NCBI GenBank assembly: GCA_963795645.1
Contig: CAWCIK010000008.1
Location: 157-64,156 of the forward strand
Length of the DNA stretch: 64,000 nt
Source of the DNA: an uncultured Chloroflexia bacterium
Lineage (GTDB): Bacteria > Chloroflexota > Limnocylindria > Limnocylindrales > CSP1-4
Direction: 5' to 3'
Part shown: positions 23,573-31,461 of the stretch, in pieces
Layout: every line of letters begins with the position of its first letter
How positions within the stretch are numbered: position 1 is the first letter of the stretch
Made by a program: the position numbers and the translations under genes
Notes under the pieces: model-generated
What the model saw: only the letters and a program-made list of their open reading frames with translations
The model's database searches: none
Told to the model about the DNA's origin: nothing

Positions 23573-24845
23573 TCACGCCCCGAATTGGATCGTGTCTACC
23601 AGCCGACGCACCACACCGAAAAAGTCATCGACAACGGTGACTGCAACGTTCGGCCCGGTGTTGCTCGTGGCGACGAACGCGACATTGCTGTCGCCAACCT
23701 CGAGCGCGTGGATCCGGAAGCGTTGCTCGGGTTGAACTTTGAAGTCGGTGCCTCCGATCGGGAAGACGGCGACTCCGCCCACACCGTCGCAGGCCGCGAG
23801 CACGGACGGGTCGACAGACACGTCGATGATCAGGCCCTTAACGTCTCCAACGAAGATCGGCGCCGGGTCGCCCACATGCAAGAAGCTTTGAGCTCGAAGA
23901 GCGTCCAGGAGATCCTGCGCCGTGTTGACCACGGCCAGCGAGTCGCCGCCCGCTACGCACGGGTCCGTATCGACGGTCGATGCGGCCGACATCGATCGTG
24001 CCGGCGGGGTCAGGCTGGTACAGCAATGACGCCTTGCTCGACGTCTCGTTGGTGAACGACCAACCCGGGTCGACAATCGCGAAGTTGATGCGCGGCTGGA
24101 ACTTGCCGAGCACGTATTGGCCGATCTCGAGCGGGCCAATTCTAGGCTGCTGGGCCACCGGGGGCGCGGGGCTTGGCGTGTGCTCTACGGGCGGTACTCC
24201 GGGCGACATCAGGAACGCGAGCCCGAATCCCGCCACCGCGAGCAGCACGAGACCAGCGCCGATGGCTGCAATCAATCGCCGACCGGGGCGCCGTTCCGAT
24301 GCGATCGCCGTTCCGCGCGGCACGGCGCGATACAGCTCGACCGGCTCCGTTATGCCCTTCAGGCGCCGCTTGCCACGCGATACGAACGTGACCGGGATGC
24401 TGGCCTGGACGATGCCCCGGACAGTTCCCGTGACGAGCACCTCCCCCGCCTCGGCCACGGCGCACACGCGCGCTGCCAGGTTGACGGCAGTGCCGATGAA
24501 GCCGCCCTCGGCCACCTCGATTGCCTCGCCCGCATGTACGCCGACGCCGACCTGCATCGGCAGATCGGGCTGTGCCGCGGAGGCTTGTGCGGCTCGTTCG
24601 ACGATGGCGAGGCCACACGTGACGGCCGTGGATGCCGACGGGAACACGACATATATCGCGTCGCCTTCGGACTTGACCGCGGCGCCATCGTGCGCGCCGA
24701 CCACCTCGCGGACCACCTGGCGGAAGCGCTGAACGAGCTCGGCCCCGGCCGCGTTGCCGGCACGCTCGGTGAACGCCGTCGACCCACGAAGGTCGGCGAA
24801 CAGGTGGCCGCGGAAGCGCGATACGGCGTTCACCGGCGCGCTCAT
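23573..24845 (-). CDS. Class III adenylate/guanylate cyclase: N-terminal catalytic domain, one TM, about 190-aa extracytoplasmic domain; one frameshift near 23,985
   Basis: [30 protein letters not shown]...[13 protein letters not shown]...[11 protein letters not shown]...[10 protein letters not shown]...; [25 protein letters not shown]. The C-terminal part continues in the frame of ORF 23573-24139. Its ATG overlaps the upstream oxidase stop (ATGA). Confidence 0.8.
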
Positions 24846-26381
24846 TCGACGGGCAGCTCGTGGATCTGGCGCGCGGCGCGGATGCCGCTCTCGAGCGCTC
24901 CCTGGATCCACGCGTGGTAGAGCGAGCAGTGCTCGCCCGCGAAGTGGATCCGGCCCTCGGGCTTGACGATGTCGGCCTGGAGCTCGGTCTGCTGGCCGGG
25001 CGCGAACATGGCGAACGCGCCCGCGCGCCCAGCGGTCGCTGTACCAGGCGTGCGAGGCGCCGACCTCGTACACGTCGCCGGATCCGCGGATGGATCTGCT
25101 CGACGTCGTCGAGCGCCTCCTCGAGGCGCGTCTCCTCGTCCATCGCCCCCCACTGGAGCGCGTCCTGGCCCCACGTGTAGGACGCGAGCAGGACGCCGCG
25201 CGCTGGTCGTCGGGTCGGGCGGTCGGGTAGTTCATGCGCCGGATCGGCAGCTCCGTGACCGTGGCGCCGCCGAAGATCCCGTCCTCGGTCTCCCAGATCC
25301 GCTCCCGGACCTGGAACAGGATCTTGGTGGACGCGTGGTAGTTGAGCTGGCGGATGGCCCGCTGCTTGCTCGTGCGAGAACGGGGTCAGCGTCTCGATCG
25401 TGCGCAGCACCGGGAACGGGACCGTGCACGATCGCGTAGTCGCCGCGGACCGGTGACGCGGTCCGGCCTCGGTCTTGACAGTGGACCTCACCCCGTCGGC
25501 GTCCTGGTCGATCGCGAACACCTCGGCCCCGAACCGGATCGTCGTCCTGCAGGCGCCGCGTAGAACGCGTTGGGCAGGCCGTCCATGCCGCCGGCGATCT
25601 CCTGCATGTCCTCGTACGCGCCGCCGAGGTCCTCGCGCAGGATCTCGACGAGCGAGTTGTGCATGTCGGCCTCGAGGAAGTTGACGACGGTGAAGTACTC
25701 GATGGCGCCCGCGCGACCAGCCCTTGTGGCGCAGGAACTCGTGGAGCGAGTACTCGTCGTACTCGCGCGACGATCTGGTCCCAGGCCGCGGTCCCTCGCG
25801 CTCGACCATCGTCCGCAGGTCGCGCGATGGCCGCCTCCCACAGCGCGTCGGCGGTGCGGCCGCGCTCGTGGTCGGCGAGGTCGAACGGCAGCCGCTCGGG
25901 ATGCGCGTCCGCCTCCGCCGTGGTCATCCGCTGGCCGCCGAGGTGCACGAGGCCGTCGCGGGTTGCCCATCACGAACGGCCGCATCGGCAGCCCGAACAG
26001 CTCGCAGTACGCGAGCGTGAGGTCGTGGGCCCGCGGGATGCGCATCCCGCCGGCCTCGGCGTACAGGCCGGGCGCGAACGGCGCGCGCAGCGTGTAGATC
26101 CGGCCGCCGACCCGGCTCTGCGCCTCGAGCACCAGTGGCTCGTGGCCCTGCCGCTTGAGCTCATAGGCGGCGACCAGGCCGGCCATTCCGGCGCCGATAA
26201 CGAGCACCTTCTTGCGTTTGCCGGATCGCGGGCTCAGGCCTTCGCGGGCGATCGACAGGACGTCGCGGCCAACGGGCGGCGCCTCGTCCGGCGCGGGTTG
26301 ACCGCTCGGGTCGGCCTTGGACTGCTCGGCGGCGAGAGATTCGATCTTGTCCGTCGATGTCCAGTGCTTCTCGTCGGCCAC
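24842..26381 (-). CDS. Flavin-dependent amine / L-amino-acid oxidase family protein, copy 1; at least 5 frame changes as assembled
   Basis: GGAAGGAG SD plus the GTG at 26381. The dinucleotide fold is [41 protein letters not shown]...[37 protein letters not shown]. Fragments in other frames read ...[11 protein letters not shown]..., ...[17 protein letters not shown]..., ...[15 protein letters not shown]... The C-terminus is [37 protein letters not shown]. Confidence 0.8.
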
Positions 26382-26472
26382 GACTCGCTCCTTCCTATCT
26401 GGGAAACAGCGCACAAAGACTAGCTGCGCAGCGTAGCGCAGGAGACGGCATGCCGATCAAGAAGGCGGAGGC

Positions 26473-26501
26473 TTGACAACGGCCATTTAGTACTAAATAC
26501 T
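26473..26501 (+). promoter_or_regulatory. Sigma-70-like promoter candidate for the fasciclin gene
   Basis: A perfect TTGACA at 26473-26478 with TAAATA (15-nt spacing) or AATACT (17-nt spacing) downstream, in an otherwise GC-rich spacer about 65 nt before the start codon. Confidence 0.35.
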
Positions 26502-26563: not shown

Positions 26564-27154
26564 ATGAAACTAACTGCGATCCTCGCCATCCCAATCGCTC
26601 TCGTAATCACCGCGTGCACGGCCGCGTCACCGACTCCGAGCCCGGCGACACCCGCCCCCACGGCTGCCACGGCCGCACCGGCCACGCCGGCTGCCACGGC
26701 CGCACCGGCCACGCCGGCTGCCACGGCAAGCCCTGAGCTAGGGGATATCGTCGCCGTCGCACAGGGTGCCGGCACGTTCAACACGCTGCTCCAAGCCGCT
26801 CAGGTGGCCGGGCTCGTCGATACCCTCCGGGGCCCAGGCCCATACACGGTCTTCGCGCCGACAGATGACGCCTTCGCGGCTCTGCCCGAGGGCACTCTCG
26901 ACAGCCTGCTGGCTGATCCCGCGGCGCTCAAGAAGGTCCTTCTCTACCATGTCGTCTCAGGCGACGTGATGGCGGTCGACGTGGTCAACGAGACGTCCGC
27001 CGACACGGTCGAAGGATCGCCCATCGCGATCACGGTCAAGGACGGCAAGGTCTATCTCAACGACAGCACCCAGGTCACCGCGACAGACATCCTGGCCTCA
27101 AATGGCGTCATCCACGTCATCGATCAGGTCCTCCTGCCGCCGGCAACCAACTGA
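26564..27154 (+). CDS. Fasciclin (FAS1) domain lipoprotein
   Basis: Lipobox LVITAC and an A/T/P linker, then ...[19 protein letters not shown]...[15 protein letters not shown]...LLYHVV...[13 protein letters not shown]. The ORF is intact. Confidence 0.9.
26663..26727 (+). repeat. 27-nt in-frame tandem duplication (2.4 copies) in the fasciclin linker
   Basis: gctgccacggccgcaccggccacgccg is repeated back to back, encoding AATAAPATP twice. Confidence 0.85.
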
Positions 27155-27180
27155 TCTAACCCCATAGTCCACGAGCTGTA

Positions 27181-27210
27181 GGGATGGGCCCGGCTTCGCC
27201 GGCCCATCCC
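27181..27210 (+). terminator. Hairpin after the fasciclin gene (weak terminator candidate, no clear U-tract)
   Basis: gggatgggcc-(10 nt)-ggcccatccc forms a 10-bp stem. Confidence 0.35.
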
Positions 27211-27233
27211 TCATTCATGAAAGGCCCCTTCCG

Positions 27234-28027
27234 ATGACGCAGGACAACTCGGCACTTCCCGTTGAGGGCGGTGCGATCTCAACAGCCAAGGCATCGTCTT
27301 TGCGAAGGTGGAACATCGCCCTGGGCTCCGTGCACGCAGTCCAGGCCGTCGCGGTCATAGCCCTGGCCACCGCCTTCACTCTACCCGTCACGGCGAGCTT
27401 CCTGGCCGGCCCTCCGGGTACGCCCGCAGGAACACCCACGACGCTATTCGACGTCTCCGTCGCGTGGGGTGTCGCGCTCTTCCTGTTGCTCTCAGCCGGC
27501 TTCCACTGGCTCGTGTCGTCGCCGGGCATCTTCGGTCGCTATATCTCCGGACTGGGCGCGCAGCACAACTACTACCGATGGGCCGAATACTCCCTGTCCT
27601 CGTCGATCATGATCGTGCTCATTGCGATGCTCACCGGCATCAGTGACATCGCCGCACTGATCGGCATCTTTGCGGCCAACGCGGCGATGATCCTCTTCGG
27701 GGCCGTCCAGGAGCGCTACGAGAAGCCCGGTGGCTCACTCTTGCCGTTCTGGATGGGCAGCCTCATTGGCATCATGCCCTGGCTGGCTGTGGGGCATCTA
27801 CCTGGTTTCACCGGGAAGCGCCGCCGAGCCGCCGGCATTCGTCTATGCGATCTTCATCTCGCTCTTCCTCTTCTTCAACGTCTTCGCCATCAACATGTGG
27901 TCCAGTACCGCCGAGATCGGACGCTGGCGTTCTATATACCTTCGGCGAGTCGACCTACTTCATCCTCAGCCTGGTTGCCAAGTCGGCTCTGGCGTGGCAG
28001 GTCTTCGCGGGCACGTTGGCCGGCTGA
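27234..28027 (+). CDS. Heliorhodopsin (about 263 aa after removing two 1-nt insertions, at the G4 run 27791-27794 and near 27946)
   Basis: It is collinear with my recollection of heliorhodopsin 48C12: ...LRRWNIALGSVHAVQ..., FLAGPPGT, YYRWAEYSLSSSIMIVLIA, AAMILFG, LLPFWMG, FVYAIFISLFLFFN, and the retinal-lysine context YFILSLVAKSALAWQVFAGTLAG-stop. The pieces lie in the frames of ORFs 27234, 27730 and 27845. Confidence 0.85.
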
Positions 28028-28073
28028 AAATGGGCGGCGGGCCGTGGCACGATGCAACACTGGTGCGCAGCTG

Positions 28074-28970
28074 ATGGCCGAGCGATCAAACACCACGGGG
28101 CGACGGCCTGCTTACCCTCCACGAGGCGGCAGACCGTCTCGGGGTGCACTACATGACCATCTACCGCCGGGTCCGGCTGGGGCATGTTGCCGGCTCACAA
28201 GGTGGGCGGCTCTTGGCGCATCGACCCCGCCGATCTCACGGGCACAGCTCGACGACGGCGCGGATGCCCGTCCGCCAATCGACAATCACGAAAGATGGGC
28301 CCCTATCACAAAAACTTGGGCTAGGCGACGACGCCTCCGTGGCCGAGCGCCTCCAGCAGCGCATGGGTGACGGGAGACGGCACCGGTTCGTGGCAGGTGG
28401 CTGCGGCGGCCATGGCCTCGGGTCTGGAGCCGGAGGACGTCTATGTAGACGTTCTCGGACCGGCGCCGCACGCTGATCGGCGTCTGCGTGGGAGAGCGGT
28501 CGGATAGGCATCGCCGATGAGCACCTGGGCCAGCGGTGTTGCGACATCCATCGTCGGCCGCATGGGTCCGCGCTTCCGTCGCCGTGGGCGACATCTGGGA
28601 ACCGTTCTGGATGGCCATGCCCGTGGGCGAGCGCCACGGGCTGGGGGCCTCGATGCTGGCGGACATCCTCTCGCTGGCTGGCTACGACGTGCTCAACCTT
28701 GGAACCGACACACCACCGGCGTCTCTCCAGACAGCACTGGCCGGGCGCGATGACGTCCGGGCCGTCGTGATCAGCGTGGTGAGCACCGCGCACCTGGCCG
28801 GTGCCGAGCGGTTGATCGCTGCCGCGCGCCGGACGTCGCCCGGGGTGCCGATCGTGGCCGGCGGCTATGCCATTCAAGACGAGGCAACAGCCCGTCGCAT
28901 CGGCTCGGACGGTTGGATCTCCGATCCTCGCAGCTTGGCCGAGCTGATCGCGGAGCTGTCCGGCCGTTAG
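28074..28970 (+). CDS. HTH (excisionase/MerR-superfamily type) + cobalamin-binding domain protein, CarH/LitR-like; at least 4 frame changes as assembled
   Basis: The N-terminal part reads LLTLHEAADRLGVHYMTIYRRVRLGMLPAHKVGGSWRIDPADL once single G insertions in G-runs are removed. A helical linker follows (...IGIADEHLASGVATSIVGRM...). The intact C-terminal ORF 28536-28970 carries the B12 loop PVGERHGLGASMLADILSLAGYDVLNLGTDTP and ...VPIVAGGYAI... Confidence 0.75.
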
Positions 28971-29000
28971 TCGTCGCCAGACGGCCATTGGCGCGGATGC

Positions 29001-30541
29001 TCAGCCGCTGGCTGAGGCGGGCTCCGTTTCGGAGGCGAAGACCTCCGGCGCCTCGTGGATCTCCTTGGCGGCCCGAATGCCGACTCGAGCGCCCCCTGGA
29101 TCCACGCGTGGTACAGCGACGTGTGCTCGCCCGCGAAATGGATTCGGCCCTCCGGCTGCGACGATGTCGGGCTGGAGCCGGGTCTGCTGCCGGGCTCGAA
29201 GAGCGCGAACGCGCCACGCGCCCACGGATCGCCGTACCAGTCCTGGGTCGCGCCCACCTCGAACTCGGTCGTGATCGAGGGGTGGATCTGGGCGACGTCC
29301 TCGAGCGCCTGCTCGATCATCGCTCGCGCGTCCGAGGCCGCCCCAGCGCAGCGCGTCCTGGCCCCACGTGTACGAGGCAAGCAGCGTGCCGCGCTCCTCG
29401 TTCGGATCCGAGTACGAGGGGTAGCAGATGCGCCGGATCCCCAGGTCGGTGACGGTCGTGCCGCCGACGATGCCGTCCTCGCTGCTCCCAGAAGCGGTGG
29501 CGCGTCTGCAGCAGGATCTTGGTCGACGCGTTGTAGTTCAGCTCGCGGATGGCCTTCTGCTTGTCGCGCGAGAACGGCGTGTCCAGGACCTCGATCTCGC
29601 GCAGGACGCTGAACGGGATCGCGCAGATCGCGTAGTCGCCGCGTGACGCTGAAGCGGCCCGACCGCCGTCTCGGTAGTGGACCGTCACCGAATTCCGCGA
29701 TCCTGCGCCATCGCGTGACTTCGGCGCCCGAAGCGGACGAACGGCTTGAGCTGCTCGTAGAACGCGTTGGGCAGCTGATCCATGCCGCCCGCGATCTCCT
29801 GCATGTCCTCGAAGGAGCGCCCGACGATCTCGCGCAGCTGCTCGACGACCGCCGCGTTCATGTTCGACTCGCGGAAGCTCATGACGCCGTACAGCTCCAT
29901 GCGCGCCTTCGGAGAAGCCGGCGCATCGCCAGGAACTCGCGGATCGAGTACTGGTCGTATTCGGCTGAGCAGCTCGTCGAGCGAGCCTGGCCGCCCTGCT
30001 CGTACTGGTCCCGGAACTCGGCTGTGGCCTCGTTCCACAGCTGGGTCCAGGTCTTGCCCCTGCTCGTGGTCGGCAAGATCGAAGGGCAGCTGCTCCGGGT
30101 TCGCGGTCGGCTTCGGCGACGGTCATGCGCTGGCCGTCGATGAGCACGAGCGTCCTGGGATTGCCCATCACGAACGGCCGCATCGGCAGGCCGAACAGCT
30201 CGCAGTACGGCCAGCGTCAGATCGTGCACGCGCGGAATGCGCATCGCGCCCGCCTCTGCGTACAGACCGGGCGCGAAGTCGCGGATCGTCTTGACCCGGC
30301 CGCCGACGCGGTGCTGCGCCTCGAGCACGAGCGGCTCGTGACCCTGGCGGCGCAGCTCGAACGCCGCGACGAGGCCGGCGATGCCGCCGCCGATGATCAC
30401 CACGCGCTTGGCCGTCTGCGGCCGTGGCTCGAGGCCCTCTTCGGGCACCGCAGGGTCTCTTCGGAGACAGGCGCGTCGACGATCGGCTGGCAGGCTCGGA
30501 TCAGCCGGCGTGCCCTGCAGTGCGGCGGCGTGTCGTGTCAT
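29001..30541 (-). CDS. Flavin-dependent amine / L-amino-acid oxidase family protein, copy 2; at least 6 frame changes as assembled
   Basis: [41 protein letters not shown]...[19 protein letters not shown]...MRPFVMGNP...; further pieces read ...[11 protein letters not shown]..., ...[22 protein letters not shown]..., ...FSVLREIEV...[17 protein letters not shown]... The C-terminus is [23 protein letters not shown] then (a missing G in tcgggc) [26 protein letters not shown]-stop at 29001. Confidence 0.8.
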
Positions 30542-31461
30542 TCTCGAGGGGTCTCCATCACGTAGCCAGAGTCTAGCTTGACCGCCCGCCCAGCGTCGCG
30601 TCAGCTGGCGGAACAGGTCGCGCCGCGGCAGGCCGGTGCGCTGGGCGACCTCGCGCGCAGCCGACGAGCGGCTCAGGCCCTCGCCCACCAGGCGTCGACC
30701 TCCGCACCGACCTTCGACCAGACCCATGCTCGGCTCGTCGCCACGCGACGCCTGCGCGCCGGCGACGACGATCGTGACCTCGCCCCGCGGCGGCTCGCTG
30801 GATCGCTCGCGCGGCGAGCTCGCCCAGCGAGCCGCGCCACGTCTCCTCGTGCATCTTGGTCAGCTCGCGGCACAGCGCCGCGCTTCGGTCGTGGCCGCAT
30901 GCGGCGGCAAGCTCGGCGAGCGTCGCAGCGGCGCGGCCGGGCGCCTCGAACAGGATCGACGTGCGCTCGTCGCCGCAGATGCGCTCGATCAGCTCGCGCC
31001 GGTCCCGGCCGCGCCGCGGCAGGAATCCCTCGAAGGTGAAGCGCGCGGCGGGAAGCGCCGAAGCGACGAGCGCGGCGAGCACCGCGGAGGGCCGGGGATT
31101 GGCACTACCCTGCCGCCGCGCGCCGCCCAGGCCGCGACGATCCCCTCTCCGGGATCGCTCACGAGAGGCGTGCCCGCGTCGGTGACGATGGCAAGGTCGC
31201 TGCCGGTCGCGAGATGATCGAGCAGCTCCCGCTCGCGCGCCGGCCCGCTCTGGGCGTGGTACGGGACAAGGCGCGTCGGCGATGTCGAAGCGCGCCCACA
31301 GCCGGCGCGTCATGCGCGTGTCCTCGGCGGCCACGAGCGGCACGGCGCGCAGAACCTCGATCGCGCGCGCGGTCATGTCGCCCAGGTTGCCGATCGGCGT
31401 GGCGACGACGTACAGCGTCGCGCCGGGCGCCGACCTCCCCGCCGAGATCCGCGTCAGTCAC
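30538..31461 (-). CDS. rsmI: 16S rRNA (cytidine-2'-O)-methyltransferase RsmI; at least 3 frame changes; both ends approximate
   Basis: ...[35 protein letters not shown]...[15 protein letters not shown]...[32 protein letters not shown]...SILFEAPGR...[10 protein letters not shown]... pieced from three frames. The candidate GTG at 31461 overlaps the nadE end. Confidence 0.75.

Follow-up and report, generated by a model that had tools for sequence, protein, structure and literature searches.

We analysed a stretch of 64,000 nucleotides of an uncultured Chloroflexia bacterium (hereafter the window; G+C content 68%), focusing on a cassette of three same-strand genes that encode a fasciclin (FAS1) lipoprotein, a heliorhodopsin (HeR), and a regulator joining an excisionase-type helix-turn-helix (HTH) to a B12-binding module. 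We propose, with a probability of about 0.6, that the regulator is an adenosylcobalamin (AdoCbl)-dependent dark repressor of the CarH/LitR-like type that autoregulates the fasciclin-HeR-regulator operon, HeR being a light-induced cargo of this operon. The gene identities, the gene order, the promoter-operator footprint, the photoreceptor motifs, and the fold are the observations on which this proposal is built.

The three genes and their promoter region

The second gene of the cassette is, by its profile matches, a heliorhodopsin gene. The repaired 263-aa product matched the Pfam family Heliorhodopsin (PF18761) over its full length (E=2.7e-96, 322.1 bits, cut-off 26.7) and the NCBIfam HeR equivalog NF038020 with 309.8 bits (cut-off 100). 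The Schiff-base Lys in transmembrane helix 7 (SLVAKS), the counter-ion Glu in helix 3 (RWAEYS), and the His residues of helices 1 and 2 (H34 and H91, L006 numbering) were invariant across 17 sequences, including that of the window, in which a basic SLRRW stretch precedes helix 1.

The regulator gene starts 46 nt past the HeR stop. Its repaired product carries the Pfam domains HTH_17 (PF12728, E=1.4e-9), B12-binding_2 (1e-8), and B12-binding (2.8e-15). The N-terminus reached 38.5 bits with PF12728 (cut-off 27) and 44.5 bits with the excisionase-type family TIGR01764 (cut-off 28.8), and the MerR Pfam family gave no match to this domain. A conserved N-terminal extension of the protein within the 46-nt spacer was ruled out by an in-frame stop there in locus L001.

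The cobalamin-binding part shows IGVCW-x9-EH (the Wx9EH motif of the helical bundle), the His loop GERHGLG, and GTDTP. Residues G132, W135, E145, H146, G180, H183, G205, and P209 were invariant in 14 relatives, and with them all four signature motifs (GxxW, EH, GxxH, and GxxxP) used by Zhang et al. (SignatureFinder, PMC11796333) to tell light-responsive cobalamin domains apart from other B12 binders. The best sequence match in the PDB was CtMerR (8jbs, E=1.9e-18), followed by photocobilins and by the Thermus thermophilus CarH/LitR. The top 50 PDB matches found by Foldseek with the AlphaFold (AF2) model of the regulator (pLDDT 85) were all photocobilin, CarH, LitR, or CtMerR, and its cobalamin-binding domain superposed on the CarH/CtMerR folds with target-normalised TM scores of 0.8-0.87 and a root-mean-square deviation of 2.3-2.7 Å. 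The nearest proteins, 65-69% identical, belong to Candidatus Limnocylindrales (Chloroflexota). Judged by these scores, the regulator is not a strict member of the CarH family, given its HTH_17 DNA-binding domain and a CarH equivalog score far under the cut-off; motifs and fold match are best explained by a predicted B12 photoreceptor repressor similar to CarH/LitR.

A previous reading of this DNA from the sequence only (the sequence-only reading) had named a HeR of roughly 263 aa with its Schiff-base Lys in SLVAKS, followed 46 nt downstream by a gene for an excisionase/MerR-superfamily HTH and a cobalamin-binding domain with GERHGLG. Both identifications hold, with significant profile matches for the two proteins after frame repair. 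The CarH/LitR-like design that it assigned to the regulator is also borne out by the motifs and fold of the B12 module; there is, however, no MerR Pfam match. It had further described a fasciclin lipoprotein gene with a near-consensus promoter 79 nt upstream of HeR: gene, spacing, and promoter were confirmed, and the promoter is the one of the fasciclin gene itself, at the head of the predicted operon. Its assumption that removing two single-base insertions suffices has to be corrected, as four repairs were needed in HeR and ~8 in the regulator, for a total of ~12.

In most related loci, the cassette begins with the fasciclin gene. Its product matched PF02469 with E=8.9e-40 (136 bits), and its translation reads as a lipobox-bearing signal peptide and a repetitive linker rich in Pro, Ala, and Thr. 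This linker (ATAAPATPA repeated) is encoded by a 27-nt tandem repeat with a 9-nt sub-period; a repeat search over 26.3-29.1 kb returned this repeat and otherwise chance pairs only. In L012-L014, L024, L029, L030, L036, and L041, the fasciclin gene is doubled in tandem ahead of HeR or of the regulator.

The promoter ahead of the fasciclin gene is the sole promoter-like site in 26.3-29.2 kb and matches 10 of the 12 consensus positions. The perfect 14-bp palindrome inside it, ATTTAGTACTAAAT, is a single copy in the window, even when up to three mismatches are allowed. At one mismatch or less, 43 sites were present in L006-L085 (849 kb) versus none in each of 20 Markov shuffles. Upstream of the operon, cTTGACA-N7-ATTTAGTRCTAAAT-AcT was the one block conserved across 28 Limnocylindrales loci; its counterpart in the Acidimicrobiia cassettes reads CTTGAC-N9-ATTTAGTACTAAAA. 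The site always heads the operon containing the regulator, whichever gene leads: it precedes fasciclin where fasciclin leads, it precedes HeR in the loci without fasciclin (L016, L023, L037, and L039), and in relatives with 45-52% identity it stands, sometimes in two copies, 30-100 nt ahead of the regulator gene. It stays at the operon promoter with or without HeR. This pattern is as expected for the cognate operator of an autoregulated repressor, and we treat the palindrome as a predicted operator. Since the near-consensus promoter is optimally spaced and the site covers the spacer and the -10 box, the arrangement argues for repression rather than for a MerR-style activation.

A G+C-rich hairpin occupies the 79-nt spacer between the fasciclin gene end and the HeR start. 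In all of the six other loci folded, a stem of 11-16 bp was found at the matching spacer position, with a different sequence in each. It is possible that the hairpin is a partial terminator or an RNA-stabilising element that sets the fasciclin:HeR ratio. The hairpin lacks a U-tail and ends ~22 nt ahead of the HeR start, so read-through is the most likely source of HeR and regulator, both in smaller amounts than the lipoprotein. A search for Rfam families and riboswitches over 25.5-30 kb gave no credible match.

According to the proposed mechanism, the three genes would form one operon transcribed from the strong promoter. In the dark, an AdoCbl-loaded oligomer would sit on ATTTAGTACTAAAT between the -35 and -10 boxes, blocking RNA polymerase. 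Light from the UV to the green would split the Co-C bond, the protein would leave the DNA, and the operon would be transcribed. As the regulator gene would be transcribed with the operon, the circuit would be one of negative autoregulation, and the hairpin after fasciclin would probably cut read-through, leaving less HeR and regulator than lipoprotein. In this scheme, the B12-based light switch would drive HeR as a cargo, and HeR would not be wired to the switch as a second sensor.

Table 1. Coordinates of the cassette and of its surroundings in the window
Feature	Position	Strand	Details
Sigma-70-type promoter	26473-26501	+	-35 TTGACA (26473-26478), 17-nt spacer, -10 AATACT (26496-26501)
Predicted operator, perfect 14-bp palindrome ATTTAGTACTAAAT	26485-26498	.	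Within the promoter spacer, overlapping the -10 box
Fasciclin (FAS1) lipoprotein gene, intact	26564-27154	+	PF02469; lipobox ITAC
27-nt tandem repeat	26643-26727		Pro/Ala/Thr-rich linker of fasciclin
G+C-rich hairpin without U-tail, fasciclin-HeR spacer	27180-27211	+	dG -31.5 kcal/mol, z -3.1
Heliorhodopsin (HeR) gene	27234-28027	+	PF18761 and NCBIfam HeR match; frame broken by 4 indels
HTH_17 + B12-binding_2 + B12-binding regulator gene (CarH-like photoreceptor module)	28074-28970	+	Pfam; ~8 single-base insertions
Flavin amine-oxidase gene, upstream	24142-26414	-	Split over at least 3 frames
Flavin amine-oxidase gene, downstream	28967-30727	-	Split over at least 3 frames
Open reading frame resembling a cyclase domain	23838-25235	-	GDAIYVVF, GVHAGEA

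Cassette conservation, distant relatives, and genomic surroundings

A scan with the regulator alignment over one genome per species (GTDB representatives) found 474 relatives, and the best 80 of the 474 were analysed. The cassette clade comprised 37 evaluable species, namely Limnocylindrales and, as their sister group, six Acidimicrobiia genome bins obtained in different studies. An intact HeR stood directly upstream of the regulator, on the same strand and with a spacer of 13-79 nt, in 24 of the 37 species, and 2 kb upstream of it in one. In five of the 37, remnants of HeR lay between the fasciclin and regulator genes, both intact, and in the other seven fasciclin was followed by the regulator, with HeR absent. 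On the neighbour-joining tree of the regulators, the HeR-less states were scattered among HeR-bearing lineages, which indicates that HeR was lost repeatedly, the fasciclin and regulator genes staying intact.

The remnants (L025:5560-6010, L027:5560-6010, L033:5670-6010, L035:5370-6010, and L036:5560-6010) originated by large internal deletions. In the L035 remnant, transmembrane helices 1-4 run in frame into the final 10 residues, and the Schiff-base Lys is gone.

The fasciclin-HeR-regulator order was found in L001/L002 and in L004, with unrelated flanking genes, and L005 has fasciclin and then the regulator, without HeR. The three genes appear to move as one unit, because related cassettes have different flanks. 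None of the fetched loci exceeded ~77% nucleotide identity to the window. Among metagenome contigs with enough downstream DNA, the regulator was the next gene in 8 of the 11 whose HeR was at least 66% identical to the cassette type; it was downstream in 0 of ~50 whose HeR was 65% identical or less, each with at least 800 nt of downstream DNA. The sequence-only reading had proposed to count how often the adjacency recurs: it does so in Limnocylindrales (Chloroflexota) and in one Acidimicrobiia clade. Since it recurs in many species of two phyla, the HeR-regulator linkage is, on this comparative evidence, real and selected, yet limited to one HeR subclade and not general to heliorhodopsins.

Furthermore, the operator was found beyond the cassette. 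In distant Acidimicrobiia, extra copies lie ahead of genes for extracytoplasmic function (ECF) sigma factors in L052 (11824), L060 (4682), L071, L080, and L082 (7385), and in L078 (10394) a copy lies between a divergent Amino_oxidase-like flavoprotein gene and an SRPBCC/Polyketide_cyc2 gene. The targets in L052, L060, L082, and L078 are probable further members of the regulon. In L071 (3599-6175) and L080 (5942-8517), the regulator gene is followed by two operator copies, with a TTGACG -35 box, and then by genes for an ECF sigma factor, a zf-HC2 anti-sigma factor, and HeR. The anti-sigma factor is an 88-aa soluble zf-HC2 protein whose stop overlaps the HeR start, and this HeR is 51% identical to that of the cassette. 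As this order differs from that of the cassette, HeR is under the predicted operator in two different gene orders. The L071/L080 HeR might stand in as the membrane portion of this soluble anti-sigma factor.

Around the cassette, two paralogous flavin amine-oxidase genes flank the three genes (Table 1). We considered whether these Amino_oxidase genes could be carotenoid desaturases (CrtI), and this was ruled out, as the NCBIfam matches covered the FAD-binding N-terminus only and were far below the cut-offs. The open reading frame that overlaps the upstream amine-oxidase region resembles, by eye, the catalytic domain of a class III adenylate/guanylate cyclase. No retinal or carotenoid genes were present among the 25 of 57 Pfam families listed for the window, so that the absence of such genes, claimed by the sequence-only reading for the whole window, agrees with the part that was checked. 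The window also holds a purine-biosynthesis set (adenylosuccinate synthetase, AICARFT/IMPCHase, SAICAR synthetase, GARS, two AIR synthase-related domains, formyl transferase, PurS, GATase_5, and Lyase_1) and other housekeeping genes (Opp-type ABC transporter, UvrA, S1 protein, and NlpC/P60).

Frameshifts and rival explanations

The frameshifts were mapped by aligning the window DNA with intact relatives. Compared with the DNA of L001 and L004, HeR has one extra base at each of 27791, 27914, and 27933 and lacks one after 27900; the ~8 single-base insertions of the regulator, outside its variable linker, are at 28095, 28183, 28331, 28365, 28473, 28485, 28527, and 28611. Insertions thus make up 11 of the 12 indels. 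The repaired HeR kept 93 of the 93 positions invariant in 16 relatives, and the repaired regulator 77 of 81, with the misses at repair junctions. A plot of G+C content at third codon positions (GC3) per frame showed frame switching concentrated over ~24-32 kb. Switching was also clustered at ~46-52 kb and 57-61 kb, and other stretches (e.g., 33.8-36.6 kb) were single-frame. This unevenness suggests local variation in assembly or consensus quality. The flanking open reading frames at 24-32.6 kb (the two amine oxidases, an rsmI-like gene, and NAD synthetase) are split across frames too. Three other genome-bin loci (L009, L014, and L023) have HeR in two pieces. Many of the relatives belong to the 'MFD' set of genome bins, which we take to be assembled from long reads.

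Given the predominance of insertions (11 of 12), the frame breaks in neighbouring genes, and the retained invariant residues, the frameshifts of the window are most likely read errors. We regard it as unlikely that HeR and the regulator are instead real pseudogenes of a decaying locus in this genome. The 12 indels do fall within 1.2 kb, next to a fasciclin gene and a first 557 nt of HeR that are clean, and genuine HeR decay is known in related species of the clade. However, these relatives decay by large deletions, whereas the indels here are nearly all single-base insertions; no invariant HeR residue is lost, the regulator is intact at every other locus, the flanking genes at 24-32.6 kb, NAD synthetase among them, are frame-broken as well, and the split HeR copies of other genome bins point to broken frames being common in such assemblies.

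We prefer operon control with HeR as cargo because the operator persists without HeR, because HeR was repeatedly lost or degraded with fasciclin and regulator intact, and because HeR-less relatives of the regulator carry the same operator before ECF sigma genes. Several points weigh against this proposal. The CarH equivalog NF052513 gave 67.8 bits (cut-off 400), confined to the B12 module, and the neighbours of distant regulators (45-52% identity) are mostly not light-related: the real ones encode NifU-like, ImuA/ImuB-like, response regulator, and acyltransferase proteins, the open reading frame clusters being otherwise mostly spurious and due to high G+C content. For this HTH_17-B12 regulator, binding to the palindrome, dependence on AdoCbl, and light-driven release are inferred, as is transcription of the three genes as one unit, which is deduced solely from the short spacers; the hairpin that follows fasciclin could terminate transcription completely. 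Moreover, with an HTH_17 instead of a MerR domain, and a single palindrome instead of direct repeats, the geometry of the oligomer on DNA may differ. Finally, HeR partners encoded by neighbouring genes are known, which leaves room for a direct contact of HeR with the regulator or with fasciclin.

The sequence-only reading had put forward a possible two-photoreceptor module. As a true signalling module, the membrane HeR (retinal, green-yellow) would bind or sequester the cytoplasmic B12 regulator, or alter its oligomeric state, to give a joint output. The tight same-strand adjacency, with spacers of 13-79 nt, seen in 24 species from both phyla would fit it, and so would the position of HeR in L071/L080, directly after a soluble zf-HC2 anti-sigma factor under the same operator, which hints at cytoplasmic regulators as partners; a characterised HeR also has its partner encoded next door (PMC9769723). 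Yet the regulator, operator, and promoter are unchanged in the seven species without HeR and in the five with remnants, the regulator relatives at 45-52% identity are almost all without HeR, and no co-varying surface or fusion was found. AdoCbl and HeR absorb overlapping green ranges, with no obvious spectral gain. On this evidence the signalling module is not supported, and we consider it quite unlikely. A broader version, in which HeR would be a light-gated membrane partner of co-encoded cytoplasmic regulators, tuning the B12 repressor here and providing the membrane domain for the zf-HC2 anti-sigma factor in L071/L080, appears decidedly unlikely; if true, the function of HeR would be the light control of transcription-factor availability.

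The partner of HeR could also be the co-induced fasciclin lipoprotein, in a light-modulated complex for adhesion or at the outer surface of a monoderm cell, with the regulator merely timing the synthesis of both. This is compatible with operon control by the B12 repressor, and the gene order speaks in its favour, fasciclin being first in most cassettes, sometimes duplicated in tandem, and conserved in its lipobox; the HeR C-terminus is extracellular and the extracellular loops are long (in part from Bulzu et al., PMC8612252). But fasciclin occurs without HeR in the seven HeR-less species, and in five more beside remnants, and HeR occurs without fasciclin in the four loci listed above; therefore neither gene requires the other, and we give such a complex a low probability. 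As for the signal, B12-binding domains alone are no proof of photoreception, since many are found in enzymes or corrinoid proteins, and the weaker NCBIfam matches of the regulator do include B12-domain enzymes and corrinoid proteins. That the regulator senses cobalamin supply instead of light, with the operon following B12 availability, is nonetheless very improbable: all four motifs of the light-responsive domains are invariant, only photoreceptors head the sequence and fold matches, and the cargo includes a retinal photoreceptor here and an ECF sigma factor, reminiscent of LitR-LitS, in relatives.

Related systems and significance

The regulator is similar to CarH of Thermus thermophilus and Myxococcus xanthus in its four-helix bundle with Wx9EH, its Rossmann cobalamin-binding domain with a His lower ligand, its N-terminal DNA-binding domain on a flexible linker, and an operator that overlaps the promoter (predicted here). 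It differs in the DNA-binding domain (HTH_17/excisionase type versus MerR, with the equivalog far below its cut-off), in the operator (one 14-bp palindrome versus tandem direct 11-bp repeats), and in the cargo (fasciclin and HeR versus carotenoid genes). In the LitR-LitS system of Streptomyces coelicolor, the B12-binding LitR controls an ECF sigma factor. The adjacency of a B12-type regulator and an operator-bearing ECF sigma gene in L052, L060, L071, L080, and L082 would follow the same logic, from light to regulator to sigma factor; unlike LitR-LitS (reviewed in PMC8156234), the clade of the window has no sigma gene in the cassette, and its DNA-binding domain is of another family. CtMerR of Chloracidobacterium thermophilum (PDB 8JBS/8JBT), the best PDB match of the regulator and bearer of the same four motifs, binds AdoCbl and responds to green light by experiment, and clusters of HTH and cobalamin-binding domains (HTH-CBD) were reported in general by SignatureFinder (PMC11796333). 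CtMerR is ~27-28% identical to the regulator, and for it an operator, targets, and a link to rhodopsin are not described.

HeR is known to bind a glutamine synthetase encoded adjacent to it. Likewise, TfHeR binds the photolyase encoded next to the HeR gene (PMC9769723). The cassette resembles these systems in that HeR is encoded beside a presumed working partner, and differs from them in that the neighbour is a transcription factor, which most likely acts on the promoter of HeR. Our literature search found no paper linking heliorhodopsin with CarH, B12-binding domains, or fasciclin. Chazan et al. 2021 (bioRxiv 10.1101/2021.02.16.431466) had, however, already counted cobalamin-binding proteins among the light-using families that neighbour HeRs and, likewise, proton pumps. 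Bulzu et al. applied a spacer criterion of <10 bp and did not mention B12 (PMC8612252); the 13-79-nt spacers of the cassette fall outside this criterion. The sequence-only reading had taken the pairing to be uncharacterised: the three-gene operon, its operator, and the fasciclin partner are not defined in these two surveys, but cobalamin-binding proteins as HeR neighbours were already listed by Chazan et al. What we regard as new is the predicted three-gene operon together with its operator, a DNA-binding domain that is not of the MerR type, the connection to ECF sigma genes, and the finding that HeR was lost repeatedly.

The cellular role of HeR is debated and its neighbours have been described as inconsistent; one clade of soil and freshwater Chloroflexota and Acidimicrobiia now appears with a fixed HeR operon. 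A B12 photoreceptor regulator that combines a non-MerR DNA-binding domain with a compact palindromic operator could serve optogenetics. The operon, with a recognisable light switch, an operator of 14 bp, and a surface lipoprotein expressed alongside HeR, all predicted, would give a concrete route to testing the role of HeR.

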